Assembly: GCA_964500725.1 (NCBI GenBank)
Contig: CAZCNP010000001.1
Location: 257,520-321,519, forward strand
DNA length: 64,000 nt
Reading direction: 5' to 3'
Source of the DNA: an uncultured Gammaproteobacteria bacterium
GTDB lineage: Bacteria > Patescibacteriota > Microgenomatia > Daviesbacterales > UBA10151
The notes under the pieces: model-generated
The model's database searches: none
What the model was told of the DNA's origin: nothing
What the model saw: only the letters and a program-made list of their open reading frames with translations
Program-made: the position numbers and the translations under genes
In this document: positions 16,436-56,939 of the stretch, piece after piece
Layout: each line of letters begins with the position of its first letter
How positions within the stretch are numbered: the stretch's first letter is position 1

Positions 16436-16807
16436 CTATTTTGCTCTTATCAGATTCCCTTCTATATCAAGTTCTACAAAATGCTCTACCCTGCCTTCCA
16501 AGTAAGCAACACATTGATTTTCAGGCAAGTCATCTATTGGTAAACGGGGATTATGAACTGTATCTACCACCCAATTTGCCATTAGGGCATTAGAAAGACA
16601 AGGGCCATTTGAAAAATTCTCCCCTCTTTCTTTCCTCTGGCGATACAGAAATATTGCCTGGTTTGCTGCAGCGTCAATCTCGCTTTTCGGAACTGTTTTT
16701 ATAATAAAATTATTAAAAAGAAGGGTAGCTACTACCGTTAAAATTACCACTGTCAAAGAAATAAAAAAAAGTAAGTTTTTTCTTTCAAATAAGATTGGAT
16801 TGGGCAT
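16436..16807 (-). CDS. membrane-anchored hypothetical protein
   Basis: One N-terminal TM helix; stop lies 3 nt from the AAA+ gene start. Confidence 0.4.
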   Translation of the reverse strand: MPNPILFERKNLLFFISLTVVILTVVATLLFNNFIIKTVPKSEIDAAANQAIFLYRQRKERGENFSNGPCLSNALMANWVVDTVHNPRLPIDDLPENQCVAYLEGRVEHFVELDIEGNLIRAK

Positions 16808-24324: not shown

Positions 24325-24954
24325 CTAACTTAAAATTTCCAAAAGCTCTTCTATATCATCTATTATAAAATCAGGATTATATTGAGCAATATCTTTACCT
24401 AAAAATCCATAAGTTACTCCCACAGTTTTCACCCCAGCATTTTTCCCAGCCAAAATATCATCACCTGTATCACCTACCATATAAGCATTTATTGGCTCTA
24501 CTCCTAATTTTCCAAGAGCAGTCAACACATGCTCTTTGTGTGGCTTTGGATTCTTTACATCATCAGCACTTACTACAACATCGAAGAACCTAGCAACTTT
24601 GGTAACTTTTAAAGAATACACAAGGCTATAACCCAACCTATTACTTACACCAGCCAACAAAAAGCCCTTATCTTTTAAAGTTTTAAGAACTTCTTTTGTA
24701 GCTTTAAATGGTTTAACTAAATGAAAATTTTCTTGTTGAAATTGTTTATGAGTTTCTGAAAGCTCTATCATGTTTCCCTCAGGAATTAGTGTTTGATAAA
24801 ATTCTAAGAGTGGCTTTCCTAAAGCTGTTTTGATATTTATATCAGAAGGGTAAGAATGATTATAAAAAGCAGTAGTATATTTTACAGCATCAAATACAAA
24901 ATTATAGGTATCTAAAAGCGTCCCATCAATATCAAAAAGAATTGCTTTTTCTAT
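24325..24954 (-). CDS. HAD-family hydrolase (start extended to an in-frame ATA overlapping the mreB stop codon)
   Basis: Track ORF 24325..24771 lacks HAD motif I, but the same frame upstream with no stop encodes (I)EKAILFDIDGTLLDT. ATA at 24954..24952 overlaps the mreB TAG as ATAG. C-terminal part carries GDTGDDILAGKNAG (motif IV). Confidence 0.6.
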   Translation of the reverse strand: MEKAILFDIDGTLLDTYNFVFDAVKYTTAFYNHSYPSDINIKTALGKPLLEFYQTLIPEGNMIELSETHKQFQQENFHLVKPFKATKEVLKTLKDKGFLLAGVSNRLGYSLVYSLKVTKVARFFDVVVSADDVKNPKPHKEHVLTALGKLGVEPINAYMVGDTGDDILAGKNAGVKTVGVTYGFLGKDIAQYNPDFIIDDIEELLEILS

Positions 24955-26015
24955 CTTAACCCTCCTGTTACTCTAACTTTGGAAAGCAGGTTTAAATTAT
25001 TTAATACCTCCCCACAACCTCTAGCAACAGTTGTTAAAGGATCATCAGCCACATACACTGGCAGTTTTGTTTCCTCTGCCAATCTTTTATCTAGACCTTT
25101 TAGCAATGCCCCTCCTCCTGCCAAATATATCCCTCTTTCTACTATATCAGTCAAAAGCTCAGGAGGAGTTTCTTCTAACACTCCTTGTACTGCTGAGATT
25201 ATTTGGGAAACTGTTGGAGATAAAGCTTCTCTTATTTCTGCTGTGGTAACTTTGATAGACTTTGGCAAACCATTTGCCAGCTCTCTACCTCTGACTACTG
25301 TTGCCATATTATCTTTGTCTTTTAATGGATAAGCTGAGCCAATTTCTATTTTGACATCCTCAGCAGTTCGCTCCCCTATTAACATCCCATACCTTATTCT
25401 CATATAATTGATAATATCCTCATCCAACTCATCTCCTGCTACCCTTAAAGATTTATTAATTACCATACCTCCTAAAGATATAACTGCCATTTCTGCTGTT
25501 CCCCCACCAATATCTACAATCATTACTCCTTCGGGGTCTTCTACTGGCAGCTTAGCCCCAATTGCTGCAGCCATTGGCTCTTCTATTAAATATGCTTCTC
25601 TGGCCCCTGCTGAAAGACAGGCATCCTGCACAGCCCTTCTTTCTACCTCAGTTACCCCTGAGGGGATACCAACTACCACCCTAGGTCTGGGGATTTTAGG
25701 TAAAGAAAAAAGACCCTTGCCAGGGTTTTCATGAACTTTATGGATAAAGTATCTCAGCATAGCTTCTGTGGTATCAAAATCAGAAATTACCCCATCTCTT
25801 AAAGGTCTTACTGCCTCAATTGCAGCAGGAGTTCTGCCTAACATTCTTTTTGCTTCAGTCCCAATTGCTAAAATTTGTCTGGTTTTTCTATGCAAAGCAA
25901 CAACAGTGGGCTCCCTAATTACAATACCTTTACCTTTGACCAACACCAGAGTATTAACAGTACCCAAATCTATACCAATATCATGAGAAACAAGTTGCCA
26001 GATCTTACCAAACAT
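24951..26015 (-). CDS. mreB: rod shape-determining protein MreB
   Basis: IGIDLGTVNTLV..., DIGGGTAEMAVIS, LAGGGALLKGLD are actin-fold ATPase motifs. Confidence 0.95.
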   Translation of the reverse strand: MFGKIWQLVSHDIGIDLGTVNTLVLVKGKGIVIREPTVVALHRKTRQILAIGTEAKRMLGRTPAAIEAVRPLRDGVISDFDTTEAMLRYFIHKVHENPGKGLFSLPKIPRPRVVVGIPSGVTEVERRAVQDACLSAGAREAYLIEEPMAAAIGAKLPVEDPEGVMIVDIGGGTAEMAVISLGGMVINKSLRVAGDELDEDIINYMRIRYGMLIGERTAEDVKIEIGSAYPLKDKDNMATVVRGRELANGLPKSIKVTTAEIREALSPTVSQIISAVQGVLEETPPELLTDIVERGIYLAGGGALLKGLDKRLAEETKLPVYVADDPLTTVARGCGEVLNNLNLLSKVRVTGGLR

Positions 26016-31664: not shown

Positions 31665-32180
31665 ATGGAAGTGGTTAAAGCACCTGACCCTAGACTTAGG
31701 GTCCAAACTAAACCTGTTAAAAAAATAAACAACGGCTTGGTCCAAATTACCAAAGATATGGTAAAACTAACCAAAACCTTCAAAGACCCTCAAGGAGTAG
31801 GTTTGGCTTCTACCCAGGTAGGGCTTGATGGAGCCTTTTTTGTGGCTAAAAATGGGGAAAAATTTATATCTGTTGTAAACCCTAAAATTTTATCCACAGG
31901 CAAAAGAACTAAAAAATATTTTGAAGGATGCTTGTCTGTGCCTAATATGTGGGGGGAGGTTAGCAGGTATTTACAGATTAAAGTTTCTTATCAAGACTTA
32001 ACAGGAAAAACCATCACCAAATCTATCAAAGGAGTTTTAGCCTGGATTTTTCAACACGAGATAGATCATCTAAATGGGGTGTTATTTTCAGATAAGGTTT
32101 TGCAGCAACAAGGCAAGTTCTATAAATTTACTGGCAAAGATAAAACAGGCACAGATACATTCCAAGAGGTGACAATATAA
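31665..32180 (+). CDS. def: peptide deformylase
   Basis: GVGLASTQVG, EGCLSVP and HEIDHLNG are the three PDF motifs. Confidence 0.95.
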   Translation: MEVVKAPDPRLRVQTKPVKKINNGLVQITKDMVKLTKTFKDPQGVGLASTQVGLDGAFFVAKNGEKFISVVNPKILSTGKRTKKYFEGCLSVPNMWGEVSRYLQIKVSYQDLTGKTITKSIKGVLAWIFQHEIDHLNGVLFSDKVLQQQGKFYKFTGKDKTGTDTFQEVTI

Positions 32181-34967: not shown

Positions 34968-35541
34968 AATTGCACCCTCAAATGGTGCTATCTAAATATA
35001 TCATATTTTTCCCTTAAAATGTCATCCTGAGCAGAGGGCATTCGTTCCTCAATTACTAACGTAATTGTAAGAATTTAGCCTCAAGGGTCTTGACAAAAGG
35101 AGGCTTTTATGGTTAAGATAGAAATATCCTTTAAGACATTGTAGATGGCCTAAAGGACTTAGGCTCTGCCTAATCCCTACTTAGCACGTTTAAAGCCAAT
35201 ATATTTTTCTTCACTGATTTGTTACTTTACGGGAGTCTGGAGTGTGTTATAAAGCAACTGCCTAAACACCAGGACACCCACCTTAGGTTTTCCTGAGGAA
35301 AAACATTGGCTAAACGACTTTAAGTAGGGAGAAATTATTCTGTTTTTCAGTGTAATTTCTGGAAACCGCTTACCATTATGTGGCGGTTCTTCCAGTTATC
35401 CCAACCTTCTGTTTAATTCCCACTAATTTTGGTAAAATATACATTGTGCCGGTGTAGCATAAATGGATTATGCAGTGCTTTTGTAAAGCACAGACTATCG
35501 GATCATACCCGATCACCGGCTCATAATAATTTATATGCCTC

Positions 35542-36407: not shown

Positions 36408-36600
36408 TTGCTCAAATTGCCCACTTAAGGAGTAATCCTTAAGTGAATTCTGAATAACGGTTAAAGATCATCTTACAAGAGATTGAGACCGTGGCGTTAT
36501 ATACGCCCGAACGACTGACAAGGAGATCCCTTAGGGGATTAAGATACAGTCTAGCCAAAAGCGAAGAACGGGGTCGCGGGTTCAATTCCCGCTGTCGGCT
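36371..36600 (+). tRNA. tRNA-Thr (anticodon GGU) interrupted in the anticodon loop by a 158-nt insertion (approx. 36406..36563) that looks like a compact group I intron
   Basis: 5' half GCCGACA-TG-GCTC-AGTGGTAGA-GAGC-A-CGTTC-TTGGTAA; 3' half GAACG-GGGTC-GCGGG-TTCAATT-CCCGC-TGTCGGC-T. The 7-bp acceptor and 5-bp anticodon stems are complementary across the insertion. The insertion contains AATTGC (P-like) and GACTG/CAGTC (P7, R/S-like AAGATACAGTC) and ends in G after an exon U. Confidence 0.7.
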
Positions 36601-38122
36601 CCCAGCCCCGAGTTGTCGGGTCCGCCCATAGGGCGGACCATTGGTTTAGAGCTTTACAGTAAACTTTTTTGTCTTTTAGTGTGAGGTCCGAGCCGAAGAT
36701 TTTTAAAGCAAGTACCTTTTTTGCCTCCATGTTGTTCCCTCTTGCGATATTAGCAACGCTCGCAGCTTCCACTATCCAGTTTTTGAAAGGTCCGAGCCAA
36801 GCATTTTTACTTTGTTGAAAAGAAAAAATCTGTTCTTCTAATTTTTTCTTTAAAGCAAGCAATTGGGATTTTTTAAGCAGATAATCATTTCTCTCAATAT
36901 CTTGGTCAAGATAGGAATCTAATAAGCGTTGGAGTTTAGAGGAAATTAGTTTAATCTCTGCTTGCTTTTCCTCAACAAACGACTGACAGGATTGGGATAC
37001 ACTCTTTTCTTCTAAGGATAACTTATCAAGCATTTTAGCTGCCCAATTTGTCTTCAAAGAAACTGTGGCTATATTATCTGAAAGCTGTCTATCTAAATCC
37101 TCTTGTCGAATAAAGGGCTCGCTACATTTAACAGTTTTGGACTTTTTCGTACAACGATAGTAAATATATGTCACATCTCTGTTAGTTCCTTGGTAATGTT
37201 TAGTCTTTTGCTCAGCAGTAATCATAAAACCACACTGCCCACAGCGAAAAAGTCCTGTAAAAGGCTTTGTTGGCCTAATATCATGCCAAGATCTACTCTT
37301 TTTGCGCCAAACTTCATGAACTTGATCCCACAGTTTCTTTGTAATGATTGGCTCATGTTTGCCTTCGTGGATCTCTCCTAAATATCTAAAATGGCCATAG
37401 TAGAATGGGTTAGATAAAATTTGTTTACTTACTCTATCAATTTTCAAAACCTTGCCATTCCTACCTACTATGCCATTTTTAGCCAAAAAGTGACATATAT
37501 CTAAAATTCTAAACTTCCTTGTTGCAAACATCTCAAAAGCTCTAACAACAGAAGGAGCTTTTCGCCTGTCAACAATAATAGTTTTAGTTCTTGAATCATT
37601 TATGTACCCAATAGGTGCAAGCTGAGGACATTCACCACGTCTTACTTTTTGGCGTAATCCTCTTTTGGTGTTTTCTGACAGAGAGTCCACGAAGTATTTA
37701 CTTTGCCCAAAGGCGATGGTGAGCATAAATTTTCCTTGAGGAGTAGGATCAAACCAGAATTGAGGAAACTTTAAGGCTTTAATTTTCTCAGTGTCAACAA
37801 GATAGATAATTTTGCCACCATCTACACTATTGCGAGCAAGTCTGTCTGGATGCCAAGCCAAAATACCAGAGGCCTCATTTTTTTCAATTCGCTCAACCAT
37901 AGAATTGAAAATTGGCCTGCCAGGTATTTTGGCAGATTGTTTCTCGATAAGTTCTTCTACTATGTATAAATCCTCACGCTTGGCAAACTCACGTAGCTCG
38001 GTAAGTTGCGCTTCAATAGATAACACCTGTTTATCCTCTACATCTGTAGACTTGCGAGCATATAATATGAATTTTTGCAAAGTATTACTGGTAGTTTGTT
38101 CCATAAAAATACAAATAAACAA
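36551..38122 (-). CDS. large serine recombinase (phage-integrase-type LSR: resolvase catalytic domain + recombinase domain + Zn-ribbon + coiled-coil)
   Basis: N-terminal LYARKSTDVEDKQVLSIEAQ (catalytic Ser), recombinase-domain features, CGQCG...C..C zinc ribbon, coiled-coil C-terminus. The last about 50 codons read through the left inverted repeat and the tRNA 3' exon, so the true stop may be earlier. Confidence 0.8.
   Translation of the reverse strand: MFICIFMEQTTSNTLQKFILYARKSTDVEDKQVLSIEAQLTELREFAKREDLYIVEELIEKQSAKIPGRPIFNSMVERIEKNEASGILAWHPDRLARNSVDGGKIIYLVDTEKIKALKFPQFWFDPTPQGKFMLTIAFGQSKYFVDSLSENTKRGLRQKVRRGECPQLAPIGYINDSRTKTIIVDRRKAPSVVRAFEMFATRKFRILDICHFLAKNGIVGRNGKVLKIDRVSKQILSNPFYYGHFRYLGEIHEGKHEPIITKKLWDQVHEVWRKKSRSWHDIRPTKPFTGLFRCGQCGFMITAEQKTKHYQGTNRDVTYIYYRCTKKSKTVKCSEPFIRQEDLDRQLSDNIATVSLKTNWAAKMLDKLSLEEKSVSQSCQSFVEEKQAEIKLISSKLQRLLDSYLDQDIERNDYLLKKSQLLALKKKLEEQIFSFQQSKNAWLGPFKNWIVEAASVANIARGNNMEAKKVLALKIFGSDLTLKDKKVYCKALNQWSALWADPTTRGWEPTAGIEPATPFFAFG
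36601..36724. repeat. left inverted repeat flanking the serine recombinase gene (65-bp perfect core 36607..36671, imperfect extension to about 36724); contains palindrome GTCCGCCC-ATA-GGGCGGAC
   Basis: Exact reverse complement of 38474..38538; the extended arms also match (gagccgaagattttt... vs gagccgaaagattt...). Confidence 0.85.
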
Positions 38123-38423
38123 AACAATAAATCAAGAAACATTTAAGTGGGAAAAGATGTGAGAGTGTAATTTACTTACCTCTCACTATTTCCACTTAAA
38201 TGGCCGCTCCGGTGCACTCAATCCAAGTTGCCTCGAATTGTCCGAAACGGCCATTAAAAAAGACAACCTTTAAGGACTGAGTGCATTTTCAATATATCAA
38301 ACTGCCAGAAAAAGACAATATAGCAAAAATTCAAATTCTTTTATTTTGGGCAAAGTTTCCGAATTTAGTAGGATTTATTAATGTGATTACTAAGAATAAA
38401 ATATCGCAAGAGATTAAAAATTA

Positions 38424-39856: not shown

Positions 39857-41038
39857 TCAGCTGGATTTTTTTTCCCAACCTGCAGCTAACAATTCTTTAA
39901 CTTGCTTATTTGTTGCAAGAGGAGCTAGTACCCCAAAAACTACTAAAGCATCTTGGTCTTCAACATTAGCAACAAAGGTATTTTGTTTATCTTCTACAAA
40001 CCTAGTCAGTTTTGCTTGCAGAACTGCTTTACTGCGTTCATCTGAAGAACTTTCAACTTGATTGTTTAGGCTGTCTTGAATGCGTTGTAATTCTTCTTTG
40101 TCATCAGCTTTGATTGCAATTCCTAGTTTTTGTAAAATCTTTTGATCTACTTCCCCAAGCAGCCTACTTAAACGGTAAATTTCTGCTTTAGTTAATATTG
40201 GATCCACTTCCAAAACTTCTTGAGTAGGCGCTTCTTCTGGAGTTTGAGTTTGAATTTCAGAAGCATCAGGCTGTGCTATTTCATTAGGTGTGAATATAAT
40301 AGAACCTGAACTCTGAGCAGGTTCTGGTGATTTTGCTGGCAGAGTTACAATAGGTGTCTCAGCTGATTTTTTCGCTTTTGCTGGTCTTGGAGCTTGTTCC
40401 TTTGCTTTTGCGATTGGGATAGATGTGGCTGCTGCGGACTTGATGGACTCAACAGGCTTTGGTTCAAGGGTATAAGTAGCCTTTTCAGTCATATTGGAAG
40501 ACCTGATAGTAGCAATAGTATATCCTTGATCTACCAGTTTTGGTCTGATATTAGTTAAAAGAAGATTAGTATTGTTCTTAGAAATACCTAAGGCCTCAGC
40601 CAATTCAACATTAGTTGGTCTTTTAGTGGGGTTTGATAAAAACCAATCTACCATTTGTGTCTCTCTGGGACTTAAACCGGTGAAGATTGGTTTTACTACT
40701 GGCATTGATGTTTCAACAGGACTCTCTGGAACTGGTGCAGTACTAACAATTGGAGCGGTAGGATGTTCTTCTGGCTTGGTGACTTGGGGTATGGATCTTC
40801 CTAGGTAATCTTCAGCGGGTGGTTCTATACCCAGTCTTTTTCTGATTAAATTATTTATTTCTGGAACTATAACGTCTATTTGTCTAGCTGCTTTAATCTC
40901 TGAACGGACTTGAGTAGCCAGCGTTTCAGCTTCATCAATTCTTCCTTCTCTTAAAAGAACAGCACTTTGTTCAGATAACTGAGAGGCCCTGATCATTCTT
41001 TCTTGCTTAACAGTAAATAGAATTCTTTCAATAGCCAT
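39857..41038 (-). CDS. hypothetical protein with central Pro/Ala-rich linker and HTH-like segment
   Basis: MVDWFLSNPTKRPTNVELAEALGISKNNTNLLL looks like an HTH; low-complexity PA-rich middle; no catalytic motif recognised. Confidence 0.4.
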   Translation of the reverse strand: MAIERILFTVKQERMIRASQLSEQSAVLLREGRIDEAETLATQVRSEIKAARQIDVIVPEINNLIRKRLGIEPPAEDYLGRSIPQVTKPEEHPTAPIVSTAPVPESPVETSMPVVKPIFTGLSPRETQMVDWFLSNPTKRPTNVELAEALGISKNNTNLLLTNIRPKLVDQGYTIATIRSSNMTEKATYTLEPKPVESIKSAAATSIPIAKAKEQAPRPAKAKKSAETPIVTLPAKSPEPAQSSGSIIFTPNEIAQPDASEIQTQTPEEAPTQEVLEVDPILTKAEIYRLSRLLGEVDQKILQKLGIAIKADDKEELQRIQDSLNNQVESSSDERSKAVLQAKLTRFVEDKQNTFVANVEDQDALVVFGVLAPLATNKQVKELLAAGWEKKSS

Positions 41039-41101
41039 AATATCTTATAATAAGTGTAATTTATACACCTTCTATCTATAAAAGTCAAGCCTCAGCTGAA
41101 T

Positions 41102-44100
41102 CTAAGAGATTCTACCTTGTTTGCGTAACTTAGCTGCAACAGAAACTATCCTTAAGAGTGGTACATCCAAAGCTTCAGCGATCTGAGGATAGGTTAGAGT
41201 TGGGTTTTGATTTACAAAACTTACCAGACTATTGGTAAGTTCTTCATTTTGTTCAACAGCAGATCTTCGCTGGGTTGTTCTACCATCTCTGACAGGCTGT
41301 ATCTCACCATCTTTAATTAACTTGGCTGCAGATGAGGTGATACTGCTATAAGACTTACCTGTTAAAACTATTATTTGAGCATTACTAAAGCCACAGTTTC
41401 TAAGATCTCTGACTAGATTACCCACGATCCGTTTTCTGCCTGGTTTTTCTTCTTCTTTGTCATCTGCTTTTTGGTTTATTATTATATTTTGGGCAAGTAG
41501 TAGAGCTGCTTTTTGAATTGCCTGATGTGCTCTGTCTTCTACCTCTTTAGCTGTTATACCAAAAATAAGGCCTAGGCGTAGCTGGGTGGTCTCTGAAGAA
41601 CCAATACTTCTCAAATACATAGATAATAAACTTTGTTGCTGAGGAGAGAGTTGTTGTTTTACTTCTGGTCTTTGTATAGCTTGTTTGTAAACCTGCTTAC
41701 ACCAATCAATATCCCTGAAATTGATTTCTAATTTACCAGCTAGTTGATCCGCAATTGTGGGTGAAGAAATTGATGGCGAAGGTTCATCAGGAAAGAGTCC
41801 CAATCTAAAAGCGACTCTTTCAGCACTGGCACCACCATATAATATACCAGGCTGATCTTTTTCCCACCAACGAGTTTGCCTTTCTAATCCTTCATCACCC
41901 CTTAGTTTACCAAGACCTGCACCCTCAAGTTGTCTTACTCGTTCTCTTGTGATGCCTAACTGTCTACCAACTTCCTCTAGTGTTCTTTTCTCTCCAGCAC
42001 CATCCAAATTAAATCTTAATGTTAGTACATCGCGTTCTTTTTCATTTAAATGTTGGGCAAATGCTCGCTCGATCTCTGTTCTAAGTGCGTTGTGTTCTGA
42101 TTCTCTTGTTACTATTTCCTCAATAGATTCACTGGGATCTGATATAAGATCCCCTACGGATTTGCTGTCTTGATCATCCTCATCAAATGTTTCGTCTAAA
42201 GAGGCAACGGTCAGTATCTGAGAATAATATATGCTTAAGGCATTATTAATTGTGCCCTTAGACAGCTTAGTTTTTTCTGCCAGTAGTTGCTCCAGCTCCT
42301 CAAGGTTGGGTTCGTGTCCTCGGGCAACTGTAAATTCCCTAGCTATTTTTCTAGTTTTGCTTAATCTATCTTCTGCATGAACAGGTAATCTGATTAACCG
42401 ACTTTTATCTTTAATAGCTCGATCTATAGATTGTCTGATCCAGTGAGTGACATAGGTAGAGAATTTCGTGCCTCGGGAAACGTCAAATTTATCAATCGCT
42501 CTTAATAAACCAAAGCTGCCTTCTTGAATCAAATCAATGAGTGGTAACCCCATATCTCGATGTTTGTTGGCAATTGATGCAACTAAAAGGTAATTACAAT
42601 TTGCTACTAGATGTTGTAAATTAGGACTCTGGGCAATTGCATTTCTCATTTTGTCCCGATCTTTCTCTGGTGTAACTTCCATAAAGGTTGGATCATTAAC
42701 CAAATCAGCAATTGCGGCCCCTCTATCAAGATACTCAAAAATCAATTTTTCTAGTTGGGCTGTCAATAATGGGAAATGACTGATTTGTCTAAAAAATGCT
42801 TCTTCAACTGAGTTTTCCCCGTTTGCTCCATCTACAGTTACAGATGGTGTCTTAAGATACTGGTCAAAAAGTCCATAATCTATCTGTTCGAAAAAGGCAA
42901 GAGCTTGTTTTTGTTGTTCGCTCAAGACTAGGGGTCCCTTTTTTCTCTCTTTCAATCTTGATGTTTTGGTTACAAAACCTGTACTAAAATCAACTTGTCC
43001 TAGAGCGACAGATTCAGCAGCTCGGGCCACTGATTGATAAATATCTTTTGATTCCACAAAAAACAATCCATCCACTACTGCCTCAAACATAGTAAGTTCT
43101 GACATTAAGTGTCCAATCACCCTTTGATCGTAAGTACCTTTTTCTCTACCTAGAATATCGCCAACCAGATAAGGGATATGAACAGTGACTTGTTCTCTTT
43201 GCCCTAGACGATGAATTCGGTCGATTGCCTGGATATAGCGGCTAATAGCATTAGGAGCGATAAAAAGTATTACCTCTGTAGCTCTATTTTTTGATGAATT
43301 TAATGTAATAGATTCTCCAGCTGTTTGATAATTTCCTACAACTACCCCTAACCCCCCTTCCCCTAAAAAATTATTCTGAATGGACAGTTTTTGTTCATCG
43401 TTTAAGGTACCATCTAAAACACCTACTGGTCTGACCCCCAGAGCCCGCAATCTCTCAGCTATAGCTTTCGTACTAATAGGAGAAGTAAATCTGTTTTCTC
43501 CTTCAACAAAAGGCGTGAAGATAACTACCTTTCGACCTTCAGCTAAAAGTTGTTTAACCTTATCTGCCAACCAAGGCATTTTGACTTGTCCTTCCAATGC
43601 CAGTAATGAATAAAATAAAGAGAAAGAATTGTCTGCATTTTTGATCGCCTGCTCTGCTGCTGACTTGAAACTTTGCTGATGCTCAGGAGACATCGATCCT
43701 AAATCTATCGGTATAAATTTAGTTTCTTTGGCTGGTAACTCAGAAATCTCATCCTTACGGCGTCTCATCATTACTTTCCTTAAAACTTTATATGTTTCAA
43801 CAGGATCGTATCTAATTTTTGCAATCAGCTCTGCTGGGATAAGTTTTGGATTGATCAAATGAGCTAAAATTAATGGTTCAATTAAATCTTTAACAAAAGG
43901 AGTACTAGTTGCAAAAGATACAGTCATCTCAGGGTGATCTTTAATAAACTGATATAAAACTGCAATTCTTTTGGCTATACTTACTCCACCTATTTCTTGT
44001 AAGGGCTTACTTAAGTTTATGGCCTCTATATTTCTAGATTTAATATTATGCGCCTCATCGATTAGAGAAGCAGCAAAAGGAAATTCATTCAACAATCTTC

Positions 44101-45817
44101 TAAAGTTAGGGTGGCGAAAAATATCATAGTTGACTAAAATAACTTGTTTATCCTTAGGGCATGCTTTCAATCGAGCCCTTAACACCTTTATTCGCTCATT
44201 TAAGGTTTTACCCTTAAGTTCTTCTTCAGCTACTGAATTAATATTAACCAAATCAAATCTGTCTGATTGTAAGTGTTTAGCTATTTCTTGTTCAACATTG
44301 GCAATAACTGTTTTACTACCAACTACTAAAACTCTACCTGGTTGTTCCTGTGAACACTCTTTTTTGTCCAGTAAATTTAGAGCTCCTAACATAAAAATAA
44401 GAGTTTTACCAGTTCCAGGTTCATCAGCTAAAATATGGCCACCATTTTCGACAAACTGTTTAATTGCTTCTACCTGATGCAGTAATAAATGTTTTTTATT
44501 ACCTTCTGGATCAAGCGTGGTAAAATAGGCTATCTGAGGAGCAAAATTGGCAATCTCCGCAAAATGTTGATAGATCTGAGGAAAAACTTTAGCATCGAAA
44601 AAATCAGTTAAATTTTTGTCTACATCCTCAGAAGGCATAATCTGTTGCTGGGTATAAATTTTCAAAAATTGGGTAAAAACAGTTGGAGGAATAGTTTTTG
44701 CTCCTGGGTTTTTATCCAAATACAGATTCCAAAACGAAGAAGCAGCTTTATAAAGTTCACTTTTAACAAGAGGTTGATAGTAACCTTCTACCAAAGAAAG
44801 AATGACCTTTTTAGAAGCAGCAGCCACGGCTTGATTATCGCTATCAGCCTGCTTAAAAAATACAACTAACGGATCCGATTGAGACAAAACTTCTTTAGCT
44901 CGATGGGATTTGGTTTGTTCTACAAATTTACTGGCTGTCTGTAAGAGTTTTTTCGCTTCCACCTGGGATAGAGCACCAAAACCACTATCTGGTAATTTTA
45001 CTGATAAATAATTGGTTAGAGCATCCAAAATTAGATCCTGGCTATCTGGTCTTAAAGCTTTAGAAGTTTCTACAACGAAAGTAGCTTCTTCAGTCAGGAA
45101 CCGGCCTACAACTTCCTCGGCATGATCCTCAAAATTTTCAGGGAACTTACCGCAAAGCTGTAATTGAACATTCTCCGGAGCTTTCTGAAAAAACATCTCG
45201 AATCTAGCTTTTCTTCTGGCTGCCGGACTACCAGCTTGAGTTTCATCAGCGTTTGTAACAACATACTGTAAATCCCAAAGGATAGATTCAACATGATGAT
45301 ACTTACCAGTAGCGAATCCTCTATATATAACAGTAGGATTCTCAGGGTCAAATGAGTCTAAAAATTGAGTAAAAGTAATATTCTCCTCAAGCAAACTTAA
45401 ATCATGACCAAAATCACTCCAAAATTTAGGAGTAAATACAAAATCGGCGGATTTGAGCTTAGTTGGAATCCATAATTTTTCAGCCATTAACTGTCTTGAT
45501 TCCGAAACTGTCTGTAGAAATTCTTCTTCCCCAAGAGGGGGTTGAAATTCGGATATTAGTGCTCTAGCTACCCTTTGATCATCTGGACGGCCTGATATAA
45601 AAGAATATCCAAGTCTGAGCATAGAGTACTTACCGCCTCTACCATTGAGAGCATTAGGATTTGCGTCAGGATCGAAAAAGTCAAAGAATTGACCAATATG
45701 CATTTTCCCCCCAACTTTTTCCAAATCTTGCTTTAATCCGCGCCAAAATTCAATTGTGCTAATCCCATCTAAATTTTCAGCGGTAAGAGGAGGTTCCTTT
45801 TCCCTAAGCATAGTCAT
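41102..45817 (-). CDS. 1571-aa fusion protein: unknown N-terminal domain + SNF2/RapA-type helicase ATPase + complete sigma-70 (regions 2, 3, 4) domain + C-terminal HTH-like domain
   Basis: SNF2 motifs I ILADEPGTGKT, II LIDEAHNIKS, V NYQTAGESITLNS, VI QAIDRIHRLGQ. Sigma-70 region 2 IDLIQEGSFGLLRAIDKFDVSRGTKFSTYVTHWIRQSI; region 4.2 RTLEEVGRQLGITRERVRQLEGAGLGKLR. Confidence 0.85.
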   Translation of the reverse strand: MTMLREKEPPLTAENLDGISTIEFWRGLKQDLEKVGGKMHIGQFFDFFDPDANPNALNGRGGKYSMLRLGYSFISGRPDDQRVARALISEFQPPLGEEEFLQTVSESRQLMAEKLWIPTKLKSADFVFTPKFWSDFGHDLSLLEENITFTQFLDSFDPENPTVIYRGFATGKYHHVESILWDLQYVVTNADETQAGSPAARRKARFEMFFQKAPENVQLQLCGKFPENFEDHAEEVVGRFLTEEATFVVETSKALRPDSQDLILDALTNYLSVKLPDSGFGALSQVEAKKLLQTASKFVEQTKSHRAKEVLSQSDPLVVFFKQADSDNQAVAAASKKVILSLVEGYYQPLVKSELYKAASSFWNLYLDKNPGAKTIPPTVFTQFLKIYTQQQIMPSEDVDKNLTDFFDAKVFPQIYQHFAEIANFAPQIAYFTTLDPEGNKKHLLLHQVEAIKQFVENGGHILADEPGTGKTLIFMLGALNLLDKKECSQEQPGRVLVVGSKTVIANVEQEIAKHLQSDRFDLVNINSVAEEELKGKTLNERIKVLRARLKACPKDKQVILVNYDIFRHPNFRRLLNEFPFAASLIDEAHNIKSRNIEAINLSKPLQEIGGVSIAKRIAVLYQFIKDHPEMTVSFATSTPFVKDLIEPLILAHLINPKLIPAELIAKIRYDPVETYKVLRKVMMRRRKDEISELPAKETKFIPIDLGSMSPEHQQSFKSAAEQAIKNADNSFSLFYSLLALEGQVKMPWLADKVKQLLAEGRKVVIFTPFVEGENRFTSPISTKAIAERLRALGVRPVGVLDGTLNDEQKLSIQNNFLGEGGLGVVVGNYQTAGESITLNSSKNRATEVILFIAPNAISRYIQAIDRIHRLGQREQVTVHIPYLVGDILGREKGTYDQRVIGHLMSELTMFEAVVDGLFFVESKDIYQSVARAAESVALGQVDFSTGFVTKTSRLKERKKGPLVLSEQQKQALAFFEQIDYGLFDQYLKTPSVTVDGANGENSVEEAFFRQISHFPLLTAQLEKLIFEYLDRGAAIADLVNDPTFMEVTPEKDRDKMRNAIAQSPNLQHLVANCNYLLVASIANKHRDMGLPLIDLIQEGSFGLLRAIDKFDVSRGTKFSTYVTHWIRQSIDRAIKDKSRLIRLPVHAEDRLSKTRKIAREFTVARGHEPNLEELEQLLAEKTKLSKGTINNALSIYYSQILTVASLDETFDEDDQDSKSVGDLISDPSESIEEIVTRESEHNALRTEIERAFAQHLNEKERDVLTLRFNLDGAGEKRTLEEVGRQLGITRERVRQLEGAGLGKLRGDEGLERQTRWWEKDQPGILYGGASAERVAFRLGLFPDEPSPSISSPTIADQLAGKLEINFRDIDWCKQVYKQAIQRPEVKQQLSPQQQSLLSMYLRSIGSSETTQLRLGLIFGITAKEVEDRAHQAIQKAALLLAQNIIINQKADDKEEEKPGRKRIVGNLVRDLRNCGFSNAQIIVLTGKSYSSITSSAAKLIKDGEIQPVRDGRTTQRRSAVEQNEELTNSLVSFVNQNPTLTYPQIAEALDVPLLRIVSVAAKLRKQGRIS

Positions 45818-45823
45818 GTTATT

Positions 45824-56046: not shown

Positions 56047-56939
56047 TGTCCCATCTTCCTTTTACTTTAGCAGCATACCTTTTTAACGCCTTGGCAGTTC
56101 TGACCAATAAGTTTTTACTCTATAAAACTATCCCTGAACCAATAGTTTATGTTTTTTATATCAGCTTGGTATCTTTACTGGCAATTTTGGCCTTACCTTT
56201 TACTAAAATACCCTCCCTAGAGGTATTTTTGACTGCCTCTTTATCAACTATTCTCTGGACAACTGGGGCATATTTTATGTTCAAAGCCTTAAAAATTGGC
56301 CAAGTCTCAAGAGTTATCCCTATTATTGGTACGGCGATCCCCTTGATTTTGTTAATTTTTGCCTCATCAACCAATGCTATCTCCCAGATTCAAATTATTG
56401 CTACTGTAGTTTTAATAATTGGCATGGTTTTTCTAACTAGATCTGACTGGAGAGGAGATTTGCCCAAAAAAGAAATTATTTTTGAGGCTTTGTCAGCTTT
56501 AGCCTTTGCCCTTTCCTATATTATCTTAAGAGAGGCATATCTAAAATTAGATTTCTTTTCCGTTATAGTCTGGTCAAGACTAATCCTGCTGCCTTTAGGT
56601 ATCCTGATGCTGTTGATTCCTAAATTGAGAGCAAAAATTATTACCTCAAAAGGTCCATCTGTTAATTTTTTCTCTAAACCAGGGTTGATATTTTTAGGAG
56701 GACAAACTGCTGGAACTATTTCAGAACTGCTGCTTTTATTTTCTATCTCTTTGACAAACCCAGCTTTGGTAAATTCTTTGCAGGGTACCCAATATATCTT
56801 TTTACTAGCTTTATCAGCTATTCTAGCCAGGTTTTATCCAGGTATTTTCAGGGAAAAATATACTCTATCTAGTATGCTGTCTAAAACCATTGGGATAGGG
56901 TTTATTGGAATTGGGCTGTATTTGTTGGCCTTTGGGTAA
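56046..56939 (+). CDS. DMT/EamA-like 10-TM membrane transporter
   Basis: Two 5-TM halves; ATGA overlap with the GH1 stop. Confidence 0.5.
   Translation: MSHLPFTLAAYLFNALAVLTNKFLLYKTIPEPIVYVFYISLVSLLAILALPFTKIPSLEVFLTASLSTILWTTGAYFMFKALKIGQVSRVIPIIGTAIPLILLIFASSTNAISQIQIIATVVLIIGMVFLTRSDWRGDLPKKEIIFEALSALAFALSYIILREAYLKLDFFSVIVWSRLILLPLGILMLLIPKLRAKIITSKGPSVNFFSKPGLIFLGGQTAGTISELLLLFSISLTNPALVNSLQGTQYIFLLALSAILARFYPGIFREKYTLSSMLSKTIGIGFIGIGLYLLAFG

Follow-up and report, generated by a model that had tools for sequence, protein, structure and literature searches.

Comparative evidence for an AUA start codon in a HAD phosphatase gene that overlaps the mreB stop codon in Candidatus Daviesbacteria

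The window, the whole 64,000-nucleotide stretch of DNA analysed here, belongs to a metagenome-assembled genome (MAG) of Candidatus Daviesbacteria (Patescibacteria/Microgenomates), an uncultured groundwater bacterium, and has a G+C content of 37%. Its minus strand carries mreB, a HAD hydrolase gene and pyrD, an order that is common to relatives. The HAD-IA phosphatase gene that follows mreB is probably translated from an AUA codon at 24954-24952, a reading drawn from sequence comparison. The start is taken to be real and not due to chance because relatives have canonical start codons at the same place, because the ATA recurs in other lineages with intact genes, and because the junction has the strongest Shine-Dalgarno (SD) pairing in the window. 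An earlier note, made from the letters of the window alone, had argued for a real non-canonical initiation mechanism. The comparative evidence bears out a genuine ATA start; it reveals no new mechanism, as known near-cognate initiation at AUA is the simplest explanation.

The mreB/HAD junction and the encoded protein

The junction is made up of the following features.

24951..26015, minus strand: mreB (Pfam MreB_Mbl, E=2e-139; 383 bits to solved MreB)
24951..24953, minus strand: mreB stop codon TAG, overlapping the ATA as ATAG (24954-24951)
24952..24954, minus strand: ATA, the proposed HAD start codon, in the column of the family Met, where relatives have canonical starts
24961..24966, minus strand: SD sequence AGGAGG within the mreB Thr-Gly-Gly codons, 6 nt before the ATA
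24973..24975, minus strand: in-frame TAG that closes the HAD frame upstream
24325..24954, minus strand: HAD-IA hydrolase open reading frame (ORF) of 209 codons plus stop (Pfam HAD_2, NCBIfam HAD-SF-IA-v3, GenBank MBI4035807.1)
24772..24954, minus strand: N-terminal 61 codons of the HAD gene, covering motif I DIDGT and the beginning of the cap, which a call from ATG 24771 leaves out

The 3' end of mreB reads GGA GGG TTA AGA TAG. The HAD frame read from the ATA is ATA GAA AAA GCA ATT CTT TTT GAT ATT GAT GGG ACG, which encodes (I/M)EKAILFDIDGT. Above the ATA, the frame stays open for six codons (AGT AAC AGG AGG GTT AAG), none of which is ATG, GTG or TTG. The first canonical HAD start is ATG 24771, which lies 61 codons past the ATA and downstream of the DxDGT nucleophile motif; no ATG, GTG or TTG occurs in the HAD frame between the in-frame TAG at 24975-73 and this codon. 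From the upstream in-frame stop to motif I, the ATA at 24954-52 is the sole AUN codon. The earlier note had placed the HAD start at an ATA overlapping the mreB stop as ATAG, had observed that the ORF called at 24325..24771 begins after motif I, and had seen no in-frame stop between that ORF and the ATA. These coordinates are confirmed, and the frame is open for the six further codons up to the TAG. An example peptide from HAD residues 1-61 is AILFDIDGTLLDTYNFVFDAVK.

The 110-nt junction, with its AGGAGG and ATAG, is identical in five Logan assemblies (L176-L180) of five separate SRA runs. This agreement of independent assemblies excludes a sequence error at the ATA, a doubt that the earlier note had raised. 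Local RNA folding around the junction is not more stable than that of shuffled sequences (z = 0.74), and promoter-like matches in the region number 10, no excess over the 9.1 expected from shuffling.

Read from the ATA, the product is a complete HAD-IA protein. Pfam HAD_2 matches residues 5-180 on model positions 1-178 (E=3.3e-39; 135.3 bits, cut-off 23.8), and the NCBIfam model TIGR01509 (HAD-SF-IA-v3) is passed with 48.3 against a cut-off of 29.4. The best solved relatives are the phosphoglycolate phosphatases 2yy6 and 2nyv, and alignments with solved phosphoglycolate phosphatases begin at residue 2 of those proteins and residue 3 of the window HAD. Motif I (FDIDGT) is formed by residues 7-12. 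Motif II (S104), motif III (K137) and motif IV (G161-D162...D166) are present in the window HAD and in all six proteins of the family that are read from an ATA. The protein resembles the HAD-IA phosphatases of the PpaX and phosphoglycolate phosphatase group in its full-length HAD_2 match and its intact motifs I-IV. It differs from them in falling below both NCBIfam equivalog cut-offs (PpaX, 164.3 vs 218 bits; PGP_bact, 86.3 vs 180 bits), from which a substrate is not assignable.

The family was studied through the 120 best homologues of the window HAD, 119 of which were aligned. Nearly all begin MKKA[IV]LFD[IV]DGT and are 209 ± a few residues long. The N-terminus that is encoded from the ATA is of this canonical kind, as the earlier note had recognised, and the HAD_2 model is aligned to it from position 1. 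Residues D8, D10 and G11 are invariant in the 119 aligned members, which excludes the other doubt of that note, that HADs of this lineage might lack motif I. In all six ATA proteins D8, D10, G11, T/V12, S104, N105, K137, P138, G161, D162 and D166 are intact.

ATA is among the start codons allowed by NCBI translation table 11. The GenBank annotation of the window HAD already runs from the ATA (MBI4035807.1, 209 aa, the same extent as 24325..24954), on contig JACQIW010000013.1 of GCA_016198315.1, so the ATA start of this gene is not itself new. Gene callers shortened the HAD gene in all five other ATA lineages; the window's own copy is not shortened in GenBank. What is new is a recurrent ATAA/ATAG coupled overlap in one Daviesbacteria gene family, tied to the strongest SD sequences, together with its systematic truncation by gene callers. 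A literature search on AUA start codons in Patescibacteria found no paper describing such junctions.

Start codons in relatives and Shine-Dalgarno pairing

The column of the ATA holds Met in 95 of the 119 aligned family members. At the DNA level, the same junction reads ATGA in the sister species (L002, L174), GTGA in L011 and L181, TTGA in L091 and TAATG in L089. Genome and metagenome contigs scanned with the HAD alignment gave mostly distant HADs, and the usable junctions among the matches listed were L009-L011, L089 and L091.

Seven of the 120 homologues are called N-terminally short. The DNA was examined for six. In five of these the mreB junction reads ATAA and leads into an ORF of 208-220 aa with an intact (I)K(K)A[IV]LFD.DG[TV] N-terminus. 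The sixth, P0088, was rejected as an ATA start since its N-terminus is rearranged or chimeric. The five lineages are as follows.

P0102, loci L003/4/5/9, ATAA: an NCBI MAG and two Logan assemblies
P0108, loci L006/7/8/10, ATAA: 14 contigs, including Daviesbacteria RIFCSPLOWO2_01_FULL_39_23; three JGI metagenomes are identical over 5.6 kb
P0070, locus L169, ATAA
P0077, locus L170, ATAA
P0073, locus L171, ATAA

With the window, six ATA proteins are available. The nearest family neighbour of each is called with a Met start, at identities of 98, 88, 77, 63, 62 and 61%; the DNA was checked for two of these neighbours and reads ATGA in L002 and GTGA in L181. Because the nearest relatives have called Met starts, six or more separate gains of the ATA, or reversions, are the most likely history of the family, as judged from the sequences. 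Four other members (P0029, P0039, P0059 and P0120) have called N-terminal extensions that end in "...GERSRT-KKAILFD", with Thr in place of the family Met. They may start at an ATG inside mreB or at another non-canonical codon.

Two sister loci bear on the recent history of the gene. The window HAD is 98-100% identical over 24430-24948 (minus strand) to positions 3007-3525 of L002 (GCA_964415615.1), as opposed to ~82% in the mreB and pyrD flanks. Between the same two loci, dS is 0.96 for mreB and 0.06 for the HAD gene. Such a contrast points to two Daviesbacteria species having recently recombined or exchanged this one gene, or else to a chimeric co-assembly. In L174 (GCA_016180885.1, 1408-2006), a 31-nt deletion, at about 24530-24560 of the window, splits the HAD gene into pieces of 133 and 67 aa. 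The flanks of L174 are 100% identical to L002, and its mid-HAD sequence diverges from both other alleles.

A second proposed ATA start lies at the def/fmt junction on the plus strand of the window.

31665..32180, plus strand: def, peptide deformylase (Pfam Pep_deformylase, 5.3e-42)
32166..32171, plus strand: SD sequence GAGGTG, 5 nt before the fmt ATA
32177..32179, plus strand: ATA, the proposed fmt start, overlapping the def TAA (32178-80) as ATAA
32177..32896, plus strand: fmt ORF from the ATA, 239 codons (Pfam Formyl_trans_N/C)

The 3' end of def reads GAG GTG ACA ATA TAA. From the ATA, fmt reads ATA AAC TCA AAG TTT AAA ATA ATT TTT CTG GGA ACA CCT GAT TTT, and the N-terminal sequence after the start is (M)NSKFKIIFLGTPDFVK. 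Homologues of fmt begin M(x)K[IV]xFLGTPDF, and the first canonical start of the window gene, TTG 32261, lies past the conserved FLGTPDF motif. The claim that two unrelated genes share the ATA-over-stop arrangement is upheld by this ATAA at 32177-32180. The relative L173 has TTGA at the fmt start position with the same GAGGTG upstream, and the sister species has an 87-nt spacer between def and fmt and an ATG. A canonical start is missing in only one of 120 fmt homologues, that of the window itself. The short homologue P0130 was considered as an ATA start and was rejected as a mis-called TTGA start.

In GenBank, the window's fmt is N-terminally short (MBI4035800.1, 211 aa, "hypothetical protein"; same contig as the HAD gene). 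The fmt gene of L173 (1950-2672) is likewise called from an internal ATG (223 aa), although the TTGA overlap start and the GAGGTG are present. Daviesbacteria Fmt proteins (P0122-P0240) are short in general, at ~230-240 aa vs 315, and their match to the NCBIfam fmt model begins only at position 70, with 189.5 bits against a cut-off of 201.5. Part of the Fmt N-terminal domain appears to be missing across the Daviesbacteria family.

Most genes of the window have weak or no SD pairing. The HAD ATA, with a duplex energy of -10.8 kcal/mol, ranks first of 56 window start sites, even when each gene is given its best candidate start. The fmt ATA, at -7.1 kcal/mol, shares third place. The window contains 3085 ATA triplets, of which 0.39% reach the HAD value and 3.7% reach the fmt value. 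A variant sequence for comparison with the AGGAGG of the HAD site is ACTGGTGGG. Across the HAD junctions, pairing energies are -9.8 to -11.0 at the six ATA starts, -9.3 to -10.3 at three GTG or TTG starts, and -5.0 and -5.4 at the two ATG starts. This pattern, in small numbers, fits compensation between the strength of the start codon and the strength of the SD.

Proposed initiation and alternative explanations

Initiation at the AUA can be pictured as follows. The mreB and HAD genes would share one mRNA with a 4-nt overlap. The anti-SD sequence of 16S rRNA would pair with the AGGAGG in the mreB Thr-Gly-Gly codons and bring the P site over the AUA 6 nt further on. There, fMet-tRNAfMet (anticodon CAU) would pair with the A and the U, and the third-base C:A mismatch would be tolerated, so that the first residue is predicted to be Met, not Ile. 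At the first two codon positions IF3 admits Watson-Crick pairs only, whereas it tolerates some non-Watson-Crick pairs at position 3 (PMC10158994). Ribosomes that end on the overlapping UAG may keep the site unfolded and supply subunits locally by termination-reinitiation coupling. Among coupled genes, the -4 nt overlap is the layout seen most often, and it has been linked to termination-reinitiation (PMC10666635). The HAD output would probably be well below that of an AUG allele.

The ATA may have originated from an ancestral ATGA. Such a codon arises easily, because G->A is the only change of the G in ATGA that preserves the upstream stop (TGA->TAA). A second change, TAA->TAG, would give the ATAG of the window and turn Lys2 of the HAD protein into Glu. 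The allele would persist where the junction has or gains a strong SD, and the enzyme is probably needed in small amounts.

Non-canonical starts of a similar kind are known from other systems. In E. coli, infC and pcnB start at AUU, a near-cognate codon against which IF3 discriminates. As proposed for the HAD gene, each encodes a conserved protein whose sole start is an AUN codon that mismatches CAU at the third base and lies at the usual distance from an SD, and their orthologues elsewhere use AUG, GUG or UUG (cited for pcnB), as the HAD relatives do. The HAD gene differs in using AUA and not AUU, in showing no sign of autoregulation, and in having its start inside a 4-nt overlap; moreover, its ATA is sporadic in the family (~5%) and not conserved.

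In mitochondria, AUA is both a start codon and a Met codon. The likeness to the HAD gene lies in AUA as an initiation codon, and the difference lies in elongation, where AUA is still Ile in the window. Set against a solved MreB, the window mreB has 10 ATA codons, of which 7 fall on Ile and 1 on Met, and ATT and ATC show the same pattern.

The ATGA and GTGA overlaps of -4 nt (PMC10666635) have the same geometry, with both genes on the same strand and the SD inside the upstream coding sequence. The proposed HAD and fmt starts differ from them in being AUA (ATAG and ATAA), which standard gene callers do not count as an overlap start. E. coli AUA reporters place AUA in a near-cognate group with AUC, AUU and CUG, and initiation from it is ~1-2% of that from AUG, or 0.02-3% in other constructs (Hecht et al., bioRxiv 10.1101/063800). 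Those constructs are synthetic, whereas the ATA described here is natural, is the only plausible start of two housekeeping-type genes, and recurs in several lineages.

The serious rival to translation from the AUA is a young pseudogene, in which the change of ATG to ATA silenced the HAD gene, the frame is still open for lack of time, and no functional product is made. It is serious because AUA is a weak start, because aUAA without an SD is untranslated in E. coli, and because a sister allele is broken; as an account of the junction it is nevertheless unlikely. Several points weigh on its side and against translation from the AUA. An E. coli coupling reporter that had no SD lost all translation of its downstream ORF once AUGA was replaced by aUAA (PMC9955659). 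If it initiates at ~1% of the AUG level, the ATA allele could be nearly without function. The HAD gene may be dispensable in the clade, as the split L174 gene indicates that its loss is tolerated. The near-identity of the window HAD body to the ATG-bearing allele of L002 means that the ATA allele could be very young and leaves dN/dS silent on selection after the ATA arose. Within lineages (L006/7/8/10 and L003/4/5/9), differences of 0-1 bases are too few to gauge purifying selection. A strong SD is also not specific to ATA, since the GTG and TTG junctions have one, and the comparison with ATG rests on n=2. The pairing energies assume a canonical anti-SD, ACCUCCUUA, with the 16S rRNA gene lying outside the window. 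Against a pseudogene stand six ATA lineages, whose nearest relatives have Met starts and all of which retain complete ORFs and catalytic residues. All six ATA junctions also have a strong SD at the right spacing, that of the window being the strongest of its 56, and fmt shows the same arrangement in the same window. The size of the mutational target argues in the same direction. A null allele can arise by 87 nonsense substitutions or any frameshift, as opposed to one substitution for ATG->ATA, so that one specific transition is over-represented against a ~100-fold larger target. Among the top matches there are six ATA alleles and ~3 visibly broken ones (P0088, P0099 and P0243), which suggests that the ATA is not equivalent to a null allele. 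This argument is weakened by the top-120 lists, which favour full-length proteins.

The other alternatives concern the start site or the decoding of the AUA. Start fidelity may be relaxed in Daviesbacteria or the wider candidate phyla through an altered IF3, initiator tRNA or 16S P site, which would make AUA efficient. This is a stronger version of the favoured near-cognate start, with the same start site and with ATGA->ATAA nearly neutral, and it is judged quite improbable. It would account for an ATA in ~5% of the HAD family (6/121) and in 2 of 56 window genes, far more than model genomes are reported to have of annotated non-canonical starts, which are rare there. Most window genes are also without an SD, and their initiation machinery may therefore be unlike the E. 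coli one. Opposed to this, 4-nt overlaps and long start-less N-terminal extensions in ~112 further ORFs of related loci gave no ATA-start candidate beyond the HAD junction, and only 1 of 120 fmt homologues is without a canonical start. ATA starts are also confined to unusually strong SDs, as expected if AUA is weak. That the true product is the 148-aa protein from ATG 24771, with the upstream open frame a coincidence or a relic, is very improbable. Prodigal-type callers give this product, and it is recorded on five contigs. It is without the nucleophile Asp8, without Asp10 of motif I and without part of the cap, and cannot be a HAD phosphatase; in addition, the family conserves the protein sequence of the 61 codons upstream of it, and no SD precedes ATG 24771. 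An artefact or recoding is the least probable of all and close to negligible. This covers a sequencing or assembly error, reading of AUA as Met, a -1 frameshift that yields an MreB-HAD fusion, and A-to-I editing of AUA to AUI. The window does come from a MAG, and the HAD frame is -1 relative to mreB. Error is opposed by the five identical assemblies, and reassignment of AUA to Met was rejected on the mreB alignment given above. A frameshift fusion was rejected since no X XXY YYZ slippery heptamer is found at G TTA AGA TAG and relatives use an ordinary ATGA overlap. UACG is the motif of TadA-type editing, and its absence from the site led to the rejection of editing.

Generality, other features of the window and meaning

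Putative ATA starts are sporadic and concentrated at strong SDs in 4-nt overlaps; they are not pervasive in the lineage. When every stop-to-stop ORF of the window was scanned with Pfam, no other domain was seen to begin upstream of its first canonical start. Scans of the window and of eight related loci found no initiator tRNA gene, and infC and the 16S rRNA gene are not in the window. A broader claim would be that relaxed discrimination in Daviesbacteria and possibly other candidate phyla, through IF3, the anticodon stem of the initiator tRNA or the 16S P site, makes AUA reasonably efficient when an SD and an overlapping stop are present, and that ATAA and ATAG form a regular, unrecognised class of coupled starts that callers systematically truncate. 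This is rather unlikely.

Some further loci of the window touch on start codons. On the minus strand, another ATAG overlap occurs at 16436-16439, between a 133-aa ORF and a ClpB-like gene; a GTG follows two codons later, and the start is ambiguous. An open frame of 105 codons at 56516-56833 (minus strand) contains no ATG, GTG or TTG, and one of 109 codons at 51704-52033 (minus strand) has no canonical start until codon 64. Neither has a Pfam match, and both are probably non-coding or antisense and not further non-canonical starts. Many window genes have a TATAAT-like box 5-12 nt upstream of their ATG (e.g., 13169, 18604, 26085, 35577 and 29296), which suggests that leaderless or very short-leader mRNAs are frequent in this genome.

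Two further regions are of a different nature. A gene at 41102-45823 (minus strand) encodes a 1573-aa protein with SNF2-type helicase domains and sigma-70 regions 2 and 4, an unusual fusion. A large serine recombinase (Resolvase, Recombinase and Zn-ribbon domains) is encoded at 36551-38131 (minus strand), ~1 kb from a tRNA-Thr gene at 35448-35522 (plus strand), and the ORFs that come after it at 39857-41044 and 45824-51153 have no Pfam match. The region of the recombinase and the tRNA-Thr gene may be an integrated element.

The ATA starts matter for the annotation of these organisms. Prodigal-type callers cannot use ATA, and in the five other ATA lineages the catalytic N-terminus of the HAD protein is cut off. 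Metabolic reconstructions of small candidate-phyla genomes can lose genes through missed ATA starts. The starts also illustrate a simple evolutionary path, along which an ATGA overlap of 4 nt turns into ATAA or ATAG with the upstream gene unharmed. Where a strong SD is present, the downstream gene apparently persists, which matches the idea of compensation between start-codon and SD strength. Natural AUAA and AUAG junctions with a strong SD are test cases for the rescue of a near-cognate start by an SD and termination-reinitiation.

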